A DNA stretch of 64,000 nt from a virus. Lineage: Duplodnaviria > Caudoviricetes. Shown piece after piece: positions 10,209 through 47,747 of this stretch. The stretch spans positions 32,001 through 96,000 of IMG/VR virus record IMGVR_UViG_3300032281_000616; one strand, given 5' to 3'. The position numbers and the translations under genes were made by a program. Position 1 is the stretch's first letter; each line of letters begins with the position of its first letter. The notes below the pieces were generated by a model, which worked only from the letters and a program-made list of their open reading frames with translations, had not been told where the DNA came from and made no database searches.

Positions 10209-10241
10209 AGAATTATTTAATATAAATGACTAAATATAGAT
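10209..10241. promoter_or_regulatory. Back-to-back divergent late promoters (TAAATA on each strand)
   Basis: tattta at 10214-10219 and taaata at 10231-10236, each 5 nt from an ATG. Confidence 0.65.
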
Positions 10242-10508
10242 ATGAGTCTTAAAAAAAAAGATCAGGATGCTATTGCTAAGTTATATATAGAAGGATTCGA
10301 TGGAGCGTCAGATGGGCCAGAGGATTATGCGGTAGATGACGCAGTTAATGCTATTTTAAATACTTTGGAACGAACCATGCGAAGAGAAGACATCAAATCC
10401 ATAATGATGATAGTAACAGATCCCAAAAACTTAGAAGAGGTTCGTTATATTGTGGATAGCGAATTAGGTGGGAAATCTCCACAATATTACGATGATGACC
10501 AATATTAA
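10242..10508 (+). CDS. Acidic putative internal head protein
   Basis: Late motif upstream; leader ends LYIE. Confidence 0.5.
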   Translation: MSLKKKDQDAIAKLYIEGFDGASDGPEDYAVDDAVNAILNTLERTMRREDIKSIMMIVTDPKNLEEVRYIVDSELGGKSPQYYDDDQY

Positions 10509-19291: not shown

Positions 19292-20178
19292 AAACTCGAA
19301 AGATTCGTAGTGAATCCTAAAAACTTTTCAGTCATTTGACCACCCGATGCATACTCACCCCCTCCACCATCACATAAATTTTCTGCCATATAAACAATAT
19401 CAGCAGGTGATCCTAGAGGTTTTCGGAAAGAGATGAACTTCGTGTCGGGATTGACCACGATGATAACATCAGCTTTGTGATTGTCAATCAATTCCTTCGC
19501 TATTTCGTTCACTGAGAGCTTGGAGAACGCTGCCAGCACCTTCCAACCCTTGAATTCACCAGAATATAGGTCTATTGTCGAGACTTCTTTCTCGATTTCT
19601 TTAAAAAATCCTTCAGCTATATTAATCTCCGTATCAGTGAAACCATCAAATCCATCAAAGAATCTATCCACAAACTTATAAAAGCTTCTGTAACCAGATC
19701 TACGATAAATTGCATTTAAATACTTGGATTCTTCGTGTTTTAAAAGATATTCATTGTAATCATCAACATAAACCAGTAGTTTTTTAACATTTACCGAGAA
19801 TTCTCTGATCTTTTTAAACTTTTTGTAGATTAATTTGGAACAAGATGAACATTCTTCTGTAATTAAAGTAGAGTCATAGGCTGTAAGCTTCTCTCCACGG
19901 TCTGAAATGATGACCAAACGAGGATCATCGATCTTATTGAGTAGTTTTTGATCAATAACCATACCCACAACAAAGACTTTATCATAATTTTCTAGATTAG
20001 TCTTGGCCCAAGTAGTATAATTTTCCTCAAATTTACCAAAGAAGCATGATTGATATTCAAATTCTTGAAAAACTTGTCCAAGTAAGATTACTGAACAGGC
20101 ACCATCAAGGTCTGAATTCGACCAAATAAATATACGACTACGCACGTCGATATTTACATCGTTATTCATATATGTCAA
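19288..20178 (-). CDS. DHH/DHHA1-family phosphoesterase-like protein (degenerate motifs)
   Basis: SDLDGACS motif I; C-terminal GGGGEYASGG DHHA1-like motif; no DHH triad visible. Confidence 0.7.
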   Translation of the reverse strand: MTYMNNDVNIDVRSRIFIWSNSDLDGACSVILLGQVFQEFEYQSCFFGKFEENYTTWAKTNLENYDKVFVVGMVIDQKLLNKIDDPRLVIISDRGEKLTAYDSTLITEECSSCSKLIYKKFKKIREFSVNVKKLLVYVDDYNEYLLKHEESKYLNAIYRRSGYRSFYKFVDRFFDGFDGFTDTEINIAEGFFKEIEKEVSTIDLYSGEFKGWKVLAAFSKLSVNEIAKELIDNHKADVIIVVNPDTKFISFRKPLGSPADIVYMAENLCDGGGGEYASGGQMTEKFLGFTTNLSSL

Positions 20179-20516
20179 TCTAATTTTTTACTTAACCTGT
20201 TTCTCAATCCCATCGCTTCCCTTTTACTTTTTTCTCTCCTAAAGTTAGGATATACTGCATTATAAGCCAAGTCTACTTCCTTTTTTAAGTCTTCGACATT
20301 TATACTGCCACCGTAAACCATAAGTTTTAATCTATGTAATGATTTCCACGCTTCTTGTAAATCAGAAAAAGGAATTTCAATCCCATCCTCTACTTGATTA
20401 AGTCCACTGCCATCTGGAGCAGAAATGATTCCACCATGCCCAACAATTGATACATCATTATTTTCTAATATAGAACCGTATACCGTCTCCAAATTTATTC
20501 TATCGATTTTTTCCAT
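20175..20516 (-). CDS. Putative internal head protein
   Basis: TAAATA (minus 20522-20527); leader ends SILE. Confidence 0.5.
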   Translation of the reverse strand: MEKIDRINLETVYGSILENNDVSIVGHGGIISAPDGSGLNQVEDGIEIPFSDLQEAWKSLHRLKLMVYGGSINVEDLKKEVDLAYNAVYPNFRREKSKREAMGLRNRLSKKLD

Positions 20517-20537
20517 GATATTATTTAGTTACAAATA

Positions 20538-20783
20538 TTAGTCCAGTTGTTTAAACGCTCTTACAATCGCATCCGTATCACATTCGTAAATTCCAGAAGA
20601 ATTCACATTATTGAGTTCTACGATTTTCCACCAATCTCCAACCAATCCAAGATCTAGCACAAAAGCGTTGTCAATTGAACCAAACATCTTAACCATTCTC
20701 ACACATTCATGAAAAACGTCCTCATGGGGTTCCACTCTATAATGATGAACCTCCCTATTTACGATTTCATTCATATATGTCAA
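20538..20783 (-). pseudogene. Possible C-terminal fragment of an R2K-clade ATP-grasp protein
   Basis: AFVLDLG..WKIVELNNVNSSGIY resembles the ATP-grasp C-terminal D/ExN motifs; no N-terminal part; begins at the end of the ART-like gene. Confidence 0.4.
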
Positions 20784-21144
20784 CTATCACATCGGGAGAA
20801 ATAGTTCCAGCATATTGATAGGTATCACCACTCAAATTATTATCATCTATTTCCAAGAGAGCCGGGTCTAATTTACTGATGTCTATTTTCAATATTACAA
20901 TTAAATCTAACCAATCTTCATCAACTATATCTGATGTTTCAGCATAAGATTCTGCCACATTTGGATCATCCGACAAATACACGACATCTGGAGAAGAGTC
21001 ATCCCAAAATTTATTGATCCCACCTCGCAAGCCAGATTGTTTGATCTTACTTAATAACGGTTTATAAGTAGCGTGATATAAATAATCCGGTAAGTTTATA
21101 TACATATTTTCATATATAAGTTTAATATCTTTTAAATATTTCAT
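20767..21144 (-). CDS. ADP-ribosyltransferase-fold protein (H-x-T type; KptA/DarT/PARP-like)
   Basis: YLYHAT..IKQSGL..VYLSDD..AESYA..IVILKID; own TAAATA (minus 21150-21155). Confidence 0.6.
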   Translation of the reverse strand: MKYLKDIKLIYENMYINLPDYLYHATYKPLLSKIKQSGLRGGINKFWDDSSPDVVYLSDDPNVAESYAETSDIVDEDWLDLIVILKIDISKLDPALLEIDDNNLSGDTYQYAGTISPDVIVDIYE

Positions 21145-21152
21145 ATTAGTAT

Positions 21153-21650
21153 TTAATTCTTGGAAAGTCTCTCCAACACGCTCAGTTCTTCATCATCCAT
21201 CAATTCCTCCGATTCCTCGCTCTGAGATATACTCAAAGTTTCATAATCTATACACATAGGTTGAACCATTCCTCTGGGACCATATCGATTCTTGATCATC
21301 CCCAGCTTAACTAACCCCAACTCCATATCTTCTTCTGTTTGGAATATGGATAATATAACATCTGATACGTGCGCGATCCCCATGGAGTTTTTGGTTAATA
21401 TTCCATTACAATAAAATAATTGATCTCCAGTAACACTAATATCGACTGTTTCCATATCACCCAACGCCACAATGTCTAAAATTTCATCATTATATTCTAA
21501 TAATAAATCACTTTTATTATTTTTGTCTTCTTGTTCACTTAATACTAGATTAACCACCTCAACACATTGCTCGGTGTCAATATCTGGATTGATTAATCCA
21601 ATATTTTTCATCAATTCCACCCTCTCTCTCACAAATTTATCGTTATTCAT
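21153..21650 (-). CDS. gp41: Split intein C-fragment fused to the gp41 helicase C-terminal extein
   Basis: ETVDISVTGDQLFYCNGILTKN|SMGIAHVSD..GMIKNRYG: intein F/G blocks followed by the DnaB-family C-terminus. Confidence 0.92.
   Translation of the reverse strand: MNNDKFVRERVELMKNIGLINPDIDTEQCVEVVNLVLSEQEDKNNKSDLLLEYNDEILDIVALGDMETVDISVTGDQLFYCNGILTKNSMGIAHVSDVILSIFQTEEDMELGLVKLGMIKNRYGPRGMVQPMCIDYETLSISQSEESEELMDDEELSVLERLSKN
21387..21650 (-). mobile_element. Split intein C-part (IntC, 88 aa including an N-terminal extension)
   Basis: Ends ILTKN followed by a Ser +1 nucleophile. Confidence 0.9.
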
Positions 21651-22737
21651 TTCTTATCCTATTGAAGAGTTCTTTATGTGTCGGTAATTCATCAGCCCAC
21701 ACATATATTATCTTAAATCCTATATTTTCAGCTACCTTCTGTTTATACTGGTCAAATTCTAAAGATTTTTCATACGTTGTGAAATTGTTTTTCCACTCAT
21801 CTTTCCTCCTAGCGTGCCAAAAGGAGTCATTATATTCTATAATAATTCTTTTTGATTTTATTACGAAATCGTATGCGAAATTTTTACCACTTACAGAATC
21901 TTTCGTCACGAATTCCTTTTTCTTAGCTATACCCCAAACAATATCATCTTTAGATATTCCACTTTTTCTCAATAATTTATACAGTGGTATGAAATATTTC
22001 AAAGACGCTTTTGATACGTGACTACTAATAAACAGCGTCCCATTATTTTTCATTCTACTTTCTAATCTTTTTAAATTTGCTTGGCGATATTTTTCAACCC
22101 CCAACACTTCACCATATCTCTCCACGAATCCCTCAAGTGAATTCAAATATGGTCGAGTGATCGTTTTCATGATCTCTTCAACATCTTCTTTAGAATACCC
22201 CAAATCTTCCCAGTGTTTTCTACTGTTCGGTGCTTTTCTATTAACGTAACGTGTTCTAAATTTTTTTGGATTATTTAAAAACAAATTTTTATTCGCTTCT
22301 ATAGCCTTAACCACATTTTTGTTTTTATAGTCATAAACCTTTTGTATTGATTCCGCTTCACTAAATCCTTTGTTTATCCAATATTGTGTAACGTGGGGAG
22401 TTATCTTATCGACGCACAAAAGCTTAAGGTTATTGCTGTGTTTTTCACCAGATCCCTCACCATACCTGATATCCATTCGTCTTTTTGTTGATTTGGAATC
22501 ATAGTATTCATAAACCAATTCTTTAAGATTTTTGGGGTTGTTGTTGATTTTATTAATCTCTTCAATAGTTTTGTGTCTTTTATAAAAAACCTCTCTACCC
22601 ATTGGGTATAAATTATAATCATTTAAATAAATTCTATAGAATTCTTTAAGATTTGTTCCTGTGTGTATCCATCTATCAAAATATTCATCAAATTCACTCG
22701 GATCTTTGCATTGTCTTCTTTTCGGCTTATCGCTCAT
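21643..22737 (-). mobile_element. Free-standing Vsr/DUF559-like endonuclease between the helicase halves
   Basis: C-terminal FAYDF..IIIEYNDSFWH; repeated YWxxKGFSE and RYGE units; TAAATA (minus 22743-22748). Confidence 0.85.
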
Positions 22738-22768
22738 AACTATATTTAGTATCGGCGTTACGTTTATC

Positions 22769-24121
22769 TCAAATGCTATTCAATTTATCGCCAACATTTA
22801 ATCCTTCTCGAATCGAAAGTCTACCACGGTTACTTGGGAATTTGTGATCCTCGCTCACTATTATTTCCTTCCCAGACTTCAATCTGATTTTAAAGCATGG
22901 TTTTATTTTTTTATGATGTATCTGAGTTACTGTTTTGTATTCATCGTTTGATTTGATTTGATCTCCGAATTTCAAATCTCCTATTTTTTTATATTCTCCA
23001 CTTCTTAATGTGACCAACTGATTGACTTCTATACATTCTCCAATACCTTCCAAACCCGGATTTTCCTTACCGTATCCGGGTTTTGATAACTGACACGCTG
23101 AAAAAAACGGGCATTTGAAAATATAAGATAACGCTCTGATCTTTTCACAAATATGCTTCACTCTTTCATATGAATTAGAACCAGTTTCGGTCGTTAGCAA
23201 ACTTATATAATCAATAACCACGGCATCTATATTTTCTCCAGAGTCTTTAATTTTTTTTATAAATGCTTCTATTTGCTTCGGTGTTATACTAGATGGTGGA
23301 AATTCTTTGATCATTATTTTTCCATCTGGGTTATTCTTCTTTTCATCCATTAAAGCGTTTCGCAATGGGTGAGTGTTAAATTTAAAATCCTTCATCGGGA
23401 TTTTAGTGATATTGGCTGATATACGTTTGGCATACACCATTTCGGACATCTCCAGAGAAATTACAAGCACACTCTTGCCTTGTTTAGCGATGTTCGCGGC
23501 TACATTGCCCAGAAAAATACTCTTACCTATATTTGCCTGCCCAGCGAACATATAGAGTGCCTTACCAGACTCTAAATACCCACCTCCGGTAGCCTCGTCT
23601 AACCATTCCCACCCCGAAGAAATATAATTTTCGACGTTGAGGATATCATCAATGATTAAATCGACATCTTTGTAAATCTCAATACCTCTATCAATATTCA
23701 GATTAATCTTACAAATATCGTCAAACGCTTCAAGAACTTTCTGAGGATTTTTTACTTTATCCTCCGCATTCTCAGCGATGTCCAGCATTTGGACCCAAGT
23801 GGCTCTTTCCTTTAAAAACCTTTCTGTATTATCATACAATTCAGCATTGTCAAATTCTTTATCTAACTTTTTAAAAGATTCTAAAAGCTTTCTAAAGTTG
23901 TTTTTGAGAATATCATTGGTTAGATATGTCTTAACCTCTGTGAAGGTTGGAAGCTTTTTTCTCTTTTCGTAAAAGTCATTTACGATTTTGAAGTATTCGG
24001 CTATGTTTTGGTTTTCAAAGTATTCTGGTTTTACATAATCTGCAATAGTGTTTAAGTATACAGGGTCAGTGATCGCTTTATATGCTATCACAGTTTCAAA
24101 AAAATCCAAGTCAAGGGTCAT
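22769..24121 (-). CDS. gp41: Replicative helicase gp41 N-terminal extein fused to split intein N-fragment
   Basis: Walker A AGQANIGKS, SLEMSE, VIDYI, ACQL, then CIEV..SEDHKFP (intein blocks A/B) and a stop. Confidence 0.95.
   Translation of the reverse strand: MTLDLDFFETVIAYKAITDPVYLNTIADYVKPEYFENQNIAEYFKIVNDFYEKRKKLPTFTEVKTYLTNDILKNNFRKLLESFKKLDKEFDNAELYDNTERFLKERATWVQMLDIAENAEDKVKNPQKVLEAFDDICKINLNIDRGIEIYKDVDLIIDDILNVENYISSGWEWLDEATGGGYLESGKALYMFAGQANIGKSIFLGNVAANIAKQGKSVLVISLEMSEMVYAKRISANITKIPMKDFKFNTHPLRNALMDEKKNNPDGKIMIKEFPPSSITPKQIEAFIKKIKDSGENIDAVVIDYISLLTTETGSNSYERVKHICEKIRALSYIFKCPFFSACQLSKPGYGKENPGLEGIGECIEVNQLVTLRSGEYKKIGDLKFGDQIKSNDEYKTVTQIHHKKIKPCFKIRLKSGKEIIVSEDHKFPSNRGRLSIREGLNVGDKLNSI
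22772..23035 (-). mobile_element. Split intein N-part (IntN, 88 aa)
   Basis: Starts at Cys1 after GLEGIGE; block B IVSEDHKFP; ends GDKLNSI-stop. Confidence 0.92.
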
Positions 24122-25578: not shown

Positions 25579-26304
25579 ATGACAGCAGAAACAGTTCTCT
25601 TTGGATATTTTGGGTCCAAGACTAGAATAGCATATAAATACCCAAAACCAATTTACGACACAATCATTGAACCTTTCGCGGGAGCGGCTGGATATTCATG
25701 TTTATATCCAGAAAAAAATGTTATTTTATATGAAAAGGATGAAATTATTGCTGGTGTTTTAGATTTTCTTATAAAATCAGAACCAGAAGATATCATGAAT
25801 TTGCCCCTGATTGCTCCGGGTGAAAGTGTGGATGATTATAATATTTGTCAGGAGGCGAAGTGGGCTATTGGTTACTGGTTAGCATCTGCAAAACAAAATC
25901 CCAATAAAAGATTATCTAAATGGGCTACAGAAAAAAGAATTTGGCCTGATTTGACTCTTAATTTTTGGGGAACTGGCTGTAGGGAAAGACTAGCGAAAAC
26001 AGTTTCTAAGATTGGGCATTGGAAAGTTTATCATGAATCTTGGGAGAATTCTGAAAGACATACTGAACCTGCAACTTGGTTCATTGATCCACCCTATATC
26101 AAAGAAGGAAAATGGTATAGGAAATCGAATAAACACATAGATTACGAAAAATTGGGTGAATGGTGTAAAACCAGACCGGGACAAACGATTGTTTGTGAGA
26201 GTAATGGAGCATCTTGGCTAGATTTTTCTGATCTATGCGAATTGAAAGGTGTTGGTAAAGGTAGAAAGCGTTCTACTGAAGTTATTTGGACACGAAACGA
26301 CTAA
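25579..26304 (+). CDS. dam: DNA adenine methyltransferase (D12/Dam class)
   Basis: YFGSK, IEPFAG (motif I), IDPPY (motif IV); TAAATA at 25567-25572. Confidence 0.85.
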   Translation: MTAETVLFGYFGSKTRIAYKYPKPIYDTIIEPFAGAAGYSCLYPEKNVILYEKDEIIAGVLDFLIKSEPEDIMNLPLIAPGESVDDYNICQEAKWAIGYWLASAKQNPNKRLSKWATEKRIWPDLTLNFWGTGCRERLAKTVSKIGHWKVYHESWENSERHTEPATWFIDPPYIKEGKWYRKSNKHIDYEKLGEWCKTRPGQTIVCESNGASWLDFSDLCELKGVGKGRKRSTEVIWTRND

Positions 26305-26312
26305 ATAGTATC

Positions 26313-28019
26313 ATGAATTTTGATTATTTCGTAGAACGTGCGGATATTTTTACCGAGATGGCTCGCGCAACATCTATTTTTGGAAATTTTCCAGAAGTTA
26401 GAGATGCATATGTTTCATTATACGCAAATATTAAAAATAGTGGAGACGTTAATCCATCACAAACCAGTCAAATAAGAAACCGATTGTATAATTTCACCGA
26501 AACATTTTTAAATAGACAAGATGAAAGTGTTATGAATTATTATAAATCTATAGCCACGAATAGCAATGCTCGTTTTGCGAATTGGGCAAAGATCATGGAT
26601 ACACTTTTAAACGAAGGTAAAATTGATTCTAAAGAATTAATATCTTTCTGGAACTCTATTTTTGAGGATAAAGCGGAGGAATCAACCACAGAAGATGGAA
26701 GTGATTTAGATTCGAAGATGCTTGATTATATATCATCAGATGATAGTGACGAGGTAGAAAGATTAAACTCCAATCTTCGTATAGGTGTCAATCGTAGGAT
26801 GAAAGAATTGACTAGTTCTGGTACATACCCGATGTCATATCTTCAATATACTAAATTGACATCTTATCTTGAACCTAGACTTCGTAAAGCATTATATGAA
26901 TCTAGAAAACTTAAAAAAACAAACAATCCAGAATCTCAAACAGAAGCATCCAAATCCGATCTGGAAAATCCTTATGGTGATGTTCAGGGATGGATCGAGG
27001 ATGCCGCAGAAACATTAAAAGAAGGAATTTTATCATATAAGGAATTATATGATTCTGGTGAAATTGAAATGGATGAAATTGTCGATAATTCTGGTCGTCC
27101 AGATAAATTAGCTCAGATTTTGGTGATGTGGAAACGAGAGAATTTTGAAAAGTCACTAAACGATATCGTCACATCATTCGCCAGTCTTCAAAATAAACCA
27201 TCTCCAGAAAAATTCATGGAGAAAATGGTTAGTTTATCTGATAAAATGGCTGATTCTGGGAATAAATCCGCATCCGCTTTATTCATGGCTCTTGGAAGAG
27301 AGTTTAAAGAATTATATGAAACCGAAGCACCTGAAGATTATACTGAAACCGATGAACAGCCTTATGCTGGCTTTGATCTAAGAGTTTTAAGAAAAATATT
27401 TCAAGGGGATGGGGGGGAACTATTTAAAGCTTGGTACGAATTTCGTAAGGCTTTACAAGAATTTAATTTAGAAAGATTAGACTTTAGAAAATCTAATAAT
27501 TTAATGGATGCTAAGGAGAAATTGAGAGCATTTGCTTCTGGTGAAAATATTTCTAAATCTCCCGATTCCGGTTTAACAAAGGCTATTATTAGACAAAAGG
27601 CAGTTATCGCTAATATGCAAGATGCTGGTCAAGACACAACAAAGGAAGAACTTCGTCTACAAAAAATGGAAGCTAGTTTGGGTAAAGAGCAATCTCCCGA
27701 ACCAAAGCAACAAAAGAATCCTTATCAAAAAACAATTGATGATTTACAAATCAAGATTCAAAATGCTGAAGAGCAATTGAAATATGCTGAACCTGAATAT
27801 GCAACACAATTAAAACAAAGTATTGCTCGTATGAACGCCGCCTTAGAATCAGCTTATCAACAGGCATCAGATTGGCAACCTGTTCAAGAATCAGTATTAA
27901 GTTATATGACCGAGCAAGTAAATAGGGATAATAAATTCTCTAAACAAAAGGGTCAATTTGTAGATAGAGGATTTAAGAAAGTCAAAAATTACAACCATTG
28001 GATGATCGTAAATGAGTGA
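26313..28019 (+). CDS. Large helical putative internal head protein (start reassigned from 26286 to 26313)
   Basis: TAAATA 26302-26307 lies 5 nt before ATG 26313; leader ends FTE-MAR; coiled-coil C-half. Confidence 0.55.
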   Translation: MNFDYFVERADIFTEMARATSIFGNFPEVRDAYVSLYANIKNSGDVNPSQTSQIRNRLYNFTETFLNRQDESVMNYYKSIATNSNARFANWAKIMDTLLNEGKIDSKELISFWNSIFEDKAEESTTEDGSDLDSKMLDYISSDDSDEVERLNSNLRIGVNRRMKELTSSGTYPMSYLQYTKLTSYLEPRLRKALYESRKLKKTNNPESQTEASKSDLENPYGDVQGWIEDAAETLKEGILSYKELYDSGEIEMDEIVDNSGRPDKLAQILVMWKRENFEKSLNDIVTSFASLQNKPSPEKFMEKMVSLSDKMADSGNKSASALFMALGREFKELYETEAPEDYTETDEQPYAGFDLRVLRKIFQGDGGELFKAWYEFRKALQEFNLERLDFRKSNNLMDAKEKLRAFASGENISKSPDSGLTKAIIRQKAVIANMQDAGQDTTKEELRLQKMEASLGKEQSPEPKQQKNPYQKTIDDLQIKIQNAEEQLKYAEPEYATQLKQSIARMNAALESAYQQASDWQPVQESVLSYMTEQVNRDNKFSKQKGQFVDRGFKKVKNYNHWMIVNE

Positions 28020-46935: not shown

Positions 46936-47295
46936 ATGAAATCAAAAACTTTAAGGTTGATTGATACCTGTCTAAAAATCATCAAAGAAGAGGGTGAAAT
47001 GCCTGATATGAGTCAAGAACAGCCATCTGGAGATGCTCAAGCTGCACCACAACCTCAAGAGGAGATAATGCCTCTGTCATCTGCTGGGGAAGATAAGTAT
47101 ATTGCTGATATGATTGATGCTGCTTTATTCGAGCCTTCTCCAGAGCAAGCTAATACTTTACTCAATCTCCAGAGTCAAATGCAAATGAAAAAATATAAGA
47201 ATTCTAGAGAAGAAATTTTACCAAGTGTTCTAGGAATTATATCATCTTCAACATCTGGTGGAGATCTCAGAAAACAACTTAACAAAATCAACTAA
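46936..47295 (+). CDS. Putative internal head protein
   Basis: Leader ends IIKEE; Gln/Pro acidic linker. Confidence 0.5.
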   Translation: MKSKTLRLIDTCLKIIKEEGEMPDMSQEQPSGDAQAAPQPQEEIMPLSSAGEDKYIADMIDAALFEPSPEQANTLLNLQSQMQMKKYKNSREEILPSVLGIISSSTSGGDLRKQLNKIN

Positions 47296-47303
47296 ATAAT
47301 ATA

Positions 47304-47747
47304 ATGGGTAAGAAATTTAAGAGAGAAGAAAATGATGTAATCTGGGAAAGCTATACAACTCCGAATGATCAGAAATATGCTGATTATTATAATGACTACA
47401 ATACATTCGAAGATGAAGATGCAGAAGCTATCATTACAATGGAAAAACCTTTAATGGTTGAACCAGAGATGGGAGATGATGATATTTTCGAGGATGATGA
47501 TATTTTCGAGGATGATGATATTTTTGAAGACGAGGATGATGATCTAGATAATGAGATCATTGTTAAAGCTCTACGTAAATTGATCAAACGCGCTGATATT
47601 CTTCTAAATCATTGTGAAAGTGATAAACTAGATACTTGGATGGTTGCTAAAATCATCAAGGCTGAAGATTATATTTCAGATGTCTGGAATGAATTGGATG
47701 ACGTTGCGGATTTTGCTAATGATGGATTTGAAGATGTGAAAATTTAA
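47304..47747 (+). CDS. Highly acidic putative head protein
   Basis: TAAATA 47293-47298; leader ends IWE; DDDIFE x3. Confidence 0.55.
   Translation: MGKKFKREENDVIWESYTTPNDQKYADYYNDYNTFEDEDAEAIITMEKPLMVEPEMGDDDIFEDDDIFEDDDIFEDEDDDLDNEIIVKALRKLIKRADILLNHCESDKLDTWMVAKIIKAEDYISDVWNELDDVADFANDGFEDVKI
47475..47528 (+). repeat. 18-bp tandem repeat x3 (GATGATGATATTTTCGAG)
   Basis: Two identical copies (47475-47492, 47493-47510) and one variant (47511-47528); encodes DDDIFE. Confidence 0.9.

Follow-up and report, generated by a model that had tools for sequence, protein, structure and literature searches.

A helicase gene in two pieces

The stretch of DNA analysed here (the window) is 64,000 nucleotides long and corresponds to bases 32001-96000 of the 202,205-bp IMG/VR virus record IMGVR_UViG_3300032281_000616. 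At 21153-24121, on the minus strand, it carries a gp41-type helicase that is divided between two separate genes by a naturally split intein, with a third gene, for a putative homing endonuclease, lying between the intein halves. We consider it probable, at roughly 85%, that this is a working trans-splicing system, that is, a fractured gene built on a split intein of the gp41-1 family and accompanied by its homing endonuclease. The phage is T4-like, and genes for a T4-type DNA polymerase and the UvsX recombinase neighbour the helicase locus. As the source is a metagenome record, an artefact of contig assembly or gene calling might be suspected, but the record has direct terminal repeats and a completeness rating of 100%, which mark it as a complete genome, and both the three-gene layout and its junctions recur in independent contigs from many samples and in a sequenced isolate. 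Such an artefact is exceedingly improbable.

The locus consists of three adjacent, co-oriented open reading frames (ORFs), and since each occupies a different reading frame, read-through cannot join the helicase pieces. The N-gene (24121..22769, 450 residues) encodes the first 362 residues of the helicase, the N-extein (23036..24121), which ends in GLEGIGE and matches Pfam DnaB_C (2.3e-22) and PHROG 19 (2e-58). It continues into the N-terminal intein half, IntN (22769..23035), whose 88 codons run from CIEVNQ to KLNSI and are closed by a TGA stop codon. After a spacer of 31 nt comes the endonuclease ORF (22737..21643, 364 residues), whose stop codon is overlapped by 8 nt by the ATG of the C-gene (21650..21153, 165 residues); an AGGA lies 6 nt upstream of that ATG. 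The C-gene encodes 88 residues ending in GDQLFYCNGILTKN, followed by the C-extein (21153..21386), 77 codons and a stop that start with the +1 Ser, comprise SMGIAHVSD and 68 more helicase residues, and match PHROG 19 (2e-7). The 88 residues divide into a conserved two-helix extension (codons 1-51, 21498..21650) and the core of the C-terminal intein half, IntC (codons 52-88, 21387..21497, ending ETVDISVTGDQLFYCNGILTKN), which holds blocks F and G, a penultimate Lys87 and a terminal Asn88. All of the strings quoted in the original prediction, which had been made from the letters of the DNA without database searches, lie at the positions that it gave. Fractured genes of this kind have been described as a host N-terminal part with IntN, a non-coding spacer of 27-51 nt, an endonuclease gene, and IntC with the host C-terminal part, all on one strand (Dassa et al., 2009; PMC2677866), and the locus in the window has exactly this layout. 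Both the layout, published in 2009, and the gp41-1 intein family are therefore known already. A megablast search of the 2,969-bp locus against phages gave no match.

The splice junction is fixed by an intein-less homologue (P0068) that spans it. This protein has 439 residues, the sum of 362 and 77, and is continuous through CQLSKPGYGKENPGLEGIGESMGIAHVSD (GLEGIGE-SMGIAHVSD); the intein-less allele reads GLEGIGESMGIAHVSD, with no gap at the junction, just as had been expected from the prediction that splicing would restore GE-SMG. The joined exteins are colinear with P0068 at 87% identity and without a gap. A near-identical 439-residue protein, P0219, is encoded in the same gene neighbourhood in a related phage of 197 kb, and its gene of 1,320 nt (78% DNA identity) has exactly the summed length of both extein parts, from which it follows that the window holds a clean insert of 1,649 bp. 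Against either homologue, removal of the intein restores a colinear host protein.

The helicase is approximately 28% identical to gp41 of T4-like phages, and no second gene in the 202-kb genome scores above the Pfam cut-off for DnaB_C. A weak DnaB_C-like match does occur elsewhere in the genome (15.5 bits, under the cut-off), and it could be taken to suggest that the fractured gene is decaying and non-functional and that a host helicase or another helicase serves replication. That is very unlikely, given that all three ORFs are intact, that the exteins are 87% identical over their full length to an intact homologue, that the proportion of non-synonymous differences (pN) is well under that of synonymous differences (pS) in all partitions, and that dozens of diverged phages keep the arrangement, one of them a viable T4-type phage in culture. 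Because the interrupted gene encodes the only DnaB-type helicase above the cut-off, it is a fair inference that the phage depends on splicing.

The split intein and its insertion site

IntN aligns without gaps to the structure of the gp41-1 intein (6qaz; E 2.8e-11), and IntC residues 56-88 align, again without gaps, to residues 96-128 of the same structure (E 2.9e-3). By our own count of HMMER match lines, identity to gp41-1 is about 41% for IntN and about 52% for the IntC core. With the gap-free match of the exteins to P0068, these values indicate that the resemblance of the locus is not due to chance, and the colinear exteins and the homology to the gp41-1 intein bear out the original proposal that a naturally split intein fractures a helicase of the gp41/DnaB family. 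The residues expected to carry out catalysis are conserved across the family. Cys1 of block A is found in 38 of 38 IntN sequences that reach the N-terminus (39 distinct sequences in total); C1, S61 and H64 are conserved in at least 95% of the 39, block B of the window intein reading S61-E-D-H64 and so having the T/S-x-x-H form. L85, T86, K87, N88 and S89 are invariant among 34 IntC genes, and N88 and S89 are also present in all loci whose two junctions can be read. Judged by these sequence features, the intein is a class 1 split intein of the gp41-1 family whose catalytic set is complete except for a Lys in place of the penultimate His. Between diverged loci the IntC core shows pN of 0.03-0.22 and pS of 0.6-1.0, and in most pairs it is under tighter non-synonymous constraint than the helicase C-extein.

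The two intein halves are also predicted to dock. The net charge is +7 for IntN and -7 for the IntC core, and the same polarity, with a positive IntN and a negative IntC, is known for gp41-1 and gp41-8 (Dassa et al., 2009; PMC2677866). The predicted IntN-IntC complex has an interface score (ipSAE) of 0.80, compared with 0.00 for the best control; 51 of 78 solved complexes attain the mark set for this score, as do 2 of 108 mismatched pairs. Agreement of contacts between runs is at least 93%, and the predicted local distance difference test (pLDDT) value of the partners is at least 72. Since structures of split inteins have already been solved, this docking may reflect only likeness to them. In the mechanism that we propose, a class 1 split intein interrupts the single gp41-type helicase of the phage, and is itself broken, at the usual point of endonuclease insertion, by a free-standing gene for a Vsr-like, putative homing endonuclease. 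Each of the N- and C-genes would be translated on its own, after which IntN, being basic, and the acidic IntC core would associate. Trans-splicing would then be performed by Cys1, the His of block B, the Asn at the end of IntC and the Ser at +1, to give a 439-residue helicase with the layout of the intein-less allele.

Several observations weigh against this proposal. The penultimate residue is Lys87 (TKN) throughout the family, whereas gp41-1 (THN) has the His that usually stands there and helps the Asn to cyclise. The C-gene product carries a 51-residue extension that lies outside the confidently predicted interface with IntN. Synonymous sites are saturated, so that constraint can be expressed only as pN and pS and not as a dN/dS ratio. 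Finally, an RNA hairpin with a late-promoter element lies 5' of the endonuclease start in 15 of 16 fractured loci (Dassa et al., 2009; PMC2677866), whereas the hairpin before the endonuclease gene in the window is not significant (-11.1 kcal/mol, z -1.0, with 28 of 200 shuffles equally good).

The first of these points, the change of His to Lys in every member, would fit a scheme in which catalysis has been lost and the intein halves act as a dimerisation module that joins the helicase pieces non-covalently; the tight predicted docking would be expected in that scheme too, regardless of chemistry. We regard it as improbable. Over several diverged helicase lineages there is little or no variation in Cys1, in the S-x-x-H of block B, in the terminal Asn or in the +1 Ser, and conservation this strict would be expected only of catalytic residues that are in use. 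An unspliced insert of 176 residues would, moreover, adjoin a segment that, by likeness of motif, probably corresponds to the DNA-binding loop H4 of DnaB. A penultimate His is usual in class 1 inteins but not obligatory, and inteins that lack it are known to splice. Covalent trans-splicing of the helicase is accordingly the explanation that we favour.

In the window the helicase is split between E362 and S363. When aligned with T4 gp41 (PDB 8dtp), the N-extein runs to SDVNMSDIAE373 and the C-extein starts at S374-AGLPATADF, which places the site at E373|S374; in the gp41 of cyanophage P-SSM2 the junction corresponds to E367|S368, and an alignment to Bst DnaB (2r6a) also spans the site. The inteins gp41-1 to gp41-7 are inserted at position 356 of the P-SSM2 protein (Dassa et al., 2009; PMC2677866), so the present site lies 12 residues downstream of theirs, matching the 'about 12 residues' of the original estimate. 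The junction footprints SGY|SSS for gp41-1 and LNR|SAY for gp41-8 (Pinto et al., 2020; PMC7090010 supplement) agree with those given in the original prediction. The gp41-8 site, QL(N/S)(R/K)|, falls after CQLSK in this helicase, 15 residues upstream of the present junction. By alignment, then, the insertion site differs both from that of the gp41-1 to gp41-7 allele and from that of gp41-8. A third gp41 site, that of gp41-9, is reported to differ from the gp41-1 and gp41-8 sites (Dassa et al., 2009; PMC2677866); the present site may be formally new, the comparison covering the gp41-1 and gp41-8 junctions.

Bacterial inteins, too, are inserted in this short conserved stretch of the RecA-like domain. 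DnaB 'site a' inteins, such as Msm DnaBi2 and the Mtu DnaB intein, are located in motif H4 (Kelley et al., 2018; PMC6195587). These share a +1 Ser with the window intein but are contiguous, with in-frame endonuclease domains, whereas the window intein is split and its endonuclease free-standing. If the Ssp DnaB junction is, as we presume, ESG|SIEQ, the present site would fall two residues upstream of it and use a different Ser.

Among the closest known systems are the gp41-1 to gp41-7 loci, which have in common with the window a T4-type gp41 host, the three-gene layout with a free-standing endonuclease, an 88-residue IntN, an IntC core of approximately 37 residues, Cys1 and a +1 Ser. The window differs from gp41-1 in the site 12 residues downstream, the Lys for His, the 51-residue IntC extension and the lack of a significant hairpin. 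The gp41-8 locus resembles it in that a phage-like gp41 is likewise fractured and accompanied by an endonuclease gene, and its intein is similar in size and in the pattern of charge; here the comparison covers site, size and charge only, and the window site is the one lying 15 residues downstream. The gp41-8-type site is used by other inteins in the same helicase clade (P0016, P0046). One of these, P0016 (133 residues), carries a different IntC, ending in LTHN with a +1 Cys, at that site 15 residues upstream, which means that two non-allelic split inteins use this helicase lineage.

The window allele is also found in a cultured phage. Shigella phage ESh36 (GenBank ON528746.1) has its intein at the identical site, with junctions SDIAE|CLDK and LTKN|SAGLPA, in the same three-gene layout, and its genes are annotated merely as primase/helicase, hypothetical protein and primase/helicase. 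Its intein is 45% (IntN) and 64% (IntC core) identical to that of the window, its IntC is likewise extended, and its halves are separated by a Vsr-like endonuclease gene. It differs in its helicase, which is T4 gp41 proper and shares 28% identity with that of the window, in a longer IntC part of 105 residues, and in an endonuclease that is only a remote homologue (hhalign probability 96%, 19% identity). In the literature we found no paper describing the E|S site, ESh36 as an intein host, or the DnaB H4 junction string, and the 'Moraphage' paper (PMC12619734) does not mention inteins.

Few split inteins occur in nature, and protein engineering makes heavy use of them; the two gp41 inteins that have been characterised rank among the fastest. 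The locus in the window appears to belong to a large and unannotated third gp41 allele, whose site shares a conserved segment with that of gp41-1, 12 residues away. At the level of sequence, its departures from the described members are a site unlike those of both characterised gp41 inteins, a Lys where the assisting His normally stands, and a conserved IntC extension that brings IntC to more than twice the usual length; the +1 residue is Ser. As a cultured T4-type phage carries the same allele, the dependence of an essential replication enzyme on trans-splicing would be directly testable.

The endonuclease gene and its expression signals

The free-standing gene between the intein halves (21643..22737) encodes a helical N-terminal region followed by a C-terminal domain that resembles Vsr-like (EDxHD-type) nucleases. 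Although homologues of the protein form 802 clusters, it matches no Pfam family even at E 10, and its only match is to a PHROG of unknown function. A phmmer search of PDB with the sequence alone returned noise, and a profile and a fold search were required to place it. The top PDB matches of a 40-sequence profile are the Vsr structures 1odg, 1vsr and 1cw0 (E of approximately 0.02) and I-Bth0305I (3r3p; E 0.64). Within the profile there is no variation at D290, E301 or H308, and conservation of D329 is at least 90%; in the HMMER alignment to 1cw0 these four fall on Vsr D51, the F62 position, H69 and D97, respectively. The equivalent of Vsr F67-W68-H69 (FWH) is conserved, and a Glu stands at the F62 position. 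Equivalents of D51, H69 and D97 together with a Glu at F62 are the features that define the Vsr-like family (Dassa et al., 2009; PMC2677866).

In an AlphaFold (AF2) model of the protein (pLDDT 90.5) the N-terminal region is long and helical, and the C-terminal domain is of alpha/beta type. In a Foldseek search with this model 1cw0 ranks first (E 2e-3, probability 1.00), 1vsr second and 3r3p fourth (probability 0.95, TM-score 0.53 by target); as no match reaches E 1e-3, support for a Vsr-type restriction-endonuclease-like fold is moderate. Profile and fold searches thus converge on the Vsr-like identity that had been suggested for the middle gene. The protein is like the Vsr-like or EDxHD enzymes exemplified by I-Bth0305I in its conserved key residues, in its separate N-terminal helical region and in being free-standing within a split intein (Dassa et al., 2009), and unlike them in matching no Pfam family and in the weakness of its sequence similarity to 3r3p. 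The genome holds only one copy of this endonuclease family, and across about 45 loci the gene is present, decayed or absent at one fixed position, a pattern that lends indirect support to homing. Its product would cut cassette-free genomes during co-infection and so spread the cassette.

The 31-nt spacer before the endonuclease ATG contains no Shine-Dalgarno sequence. It ends in ACTAAATA-tagtt-ATG, a TAAATA-N5-ATG box (22735..22748, minus strand) that is immediately 5' of and includes the start codon. This arrangement occurs 17 times in the window, compared with 2.9 +/- 1.6 times in shuffles. The copies, among them those at 10231-10244 (plus), 20514-20527 (minus), 21142-21155 (minus), 26302-26315 (plus) and 47293-47306 (plus), stand mostly before ORF starts, and the commonest form is ACTAAATA followed by 5 nt and ATG, usually without a Shine-Dalgarno sequence. 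As the box resembles the late promoter box of T4, it would be a late-type promoter that gives a nearly leaderless mRNA, and the endonuclease would be expressed, presumably late, from its own TAAATA box 5 nt before the ATG without a ribosome-binding site. The relatives L041 and L042 carry TATAAATA within an inverted repeat. Scans of the locus for sigma-70 promoters and terminators gave no excess over shuffles, and the early leaderless promoter AAACACTA has no match upstream of the endonuclease gene.

The IntC extension and the spread of the allele

The C-gene starts 51 residues before the part that matches gp41-1, which has no counterpart to this extension. It is conserved from Met1, with E39, K43 and D48 invariant in 34 sequences, and carries a net charge of -5; AF2 predicts two helices, at residues 3-17 and 26-49, with pLDDT of 76-87. 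The predicted contacts of the C-gene product with IntN involve residues 44-45, 48 and 51-89. A Pfam search with the extension returned nothing, even at E 10. Its pN of 0.29-0.43 against a pS of 0.67-0.97 points to weak rather than zero constraint. Extensions of this kind occur only at IntC N-termini, whether or not an endonuclease gene is present (for example in L007, L009 and L022), and are absent from a more distant subfamily, characterised by CL(D/S)..FYAN, in which the IntC parts have 39-42 residues.

We raise the idea tentatively, as one that is possible but less likely than its negation, that the 51-residue two-helix cap and the invariant Lys-Asn end mark a distinct subclass of split inteins with equal halves of 88 and 88 residues, in which the cap would be a working part and not a linker relic of endonuclease insertion. 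Such a cap might hold the disordered IntC soluble, or might hold off association until the helicase pieces have folded. If this were true, the family would offer a new trans-splicing tool, possibly orthogonal and regulatable, and with ESh36 there would be a system in culture in which to ask why phages put up with a break in an essential gene.

The site had originally been called apparently uncommon, a description that does not hold for metagenomes. While only one of 50,697 GenBank phage records (Shigella phage ESh36) has this intein, IMG/VR yields 44 loci with the same E|S site and intein family, and more than 30 protein clusters belong to it: 40 clusters in metagenomes match the C-gene, mostly as IntC genes (34 were aligned), and 24 match the IntN region. 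In 35 of the 35 loci where both junctions can be read, these are (S/A/G)E|C, or D|C once, and LTKN|S. Several helicase lineages are represented, among them cyanophage-like ones adjacent to uvsX. No contiguous form of the intein at the E|S site was seen among 24 matches (248-788 residues), which is weak evidence as the search needs shared 5-residue words; the two long matches, P0046 and P0063, turned out to be N-genes with a second intein.

The presence of both intein and endonuclease is polymorphic. A set of 52 loci was examined, including the window, ESh36, contigs from an exact protein look-up and some incomplete loci, and 20 of these have a full endonuclease gene of this family. In one locus the gene is frameshifted (L029:2789-3851), and C-terminal remnants of 87 residues (L016:1189-1449) and 57 residues (L044:3763-3933) are left in two others. 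The other complete loci, approximately 20, have no endonuclease, and their intein halves are 1-138 nt apart except in L038, where they overlap, and L043, where they are separated by 416 nt; in L022 an in-frame TAA-TAC-ATG stands between the halves. These states correspond to the steps proposed in the gene-breaking model (Dassa et al., 2009; PMC2677866), and the loci preserve its stages at a single site: no intein, a split intein whose nuclease gene is intact, one whose nuclease gene is frameshifted or truncated, and one that lacks a nuclease gene.

Some members of the allele carry further insertions or breaks in the helicase. The N-gene of L020 (2116-3969; P0046) has a contiguous mini-intein at the gp41-8-type site (QLNR|C...THN|C) and the split IntN (ISE|C) 15 residues later, and the cyanophage-like gp41 N-gene of L038 (2064-3872; P0063) combines a contiguous intein in the P-loop (LAG|C...SHN|T) with a split IntN at DTSE|C. 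Directly downstream of the C-gene in the window, about 940 bp (20175-21144, minus strand, with ORFs of 125, 81 and 113 residues) are absent from the otherwise colinear, intein-less L055. In L006 (1224-4005) the helicase is broken again further upstream, with an opposite-strand ORF of 304 residues between the pieces, and a second, upstream helicase break is also found in L049/L050 (592-2743), where L049 has an endonuclease-like remnant and a weak IntN-like match.

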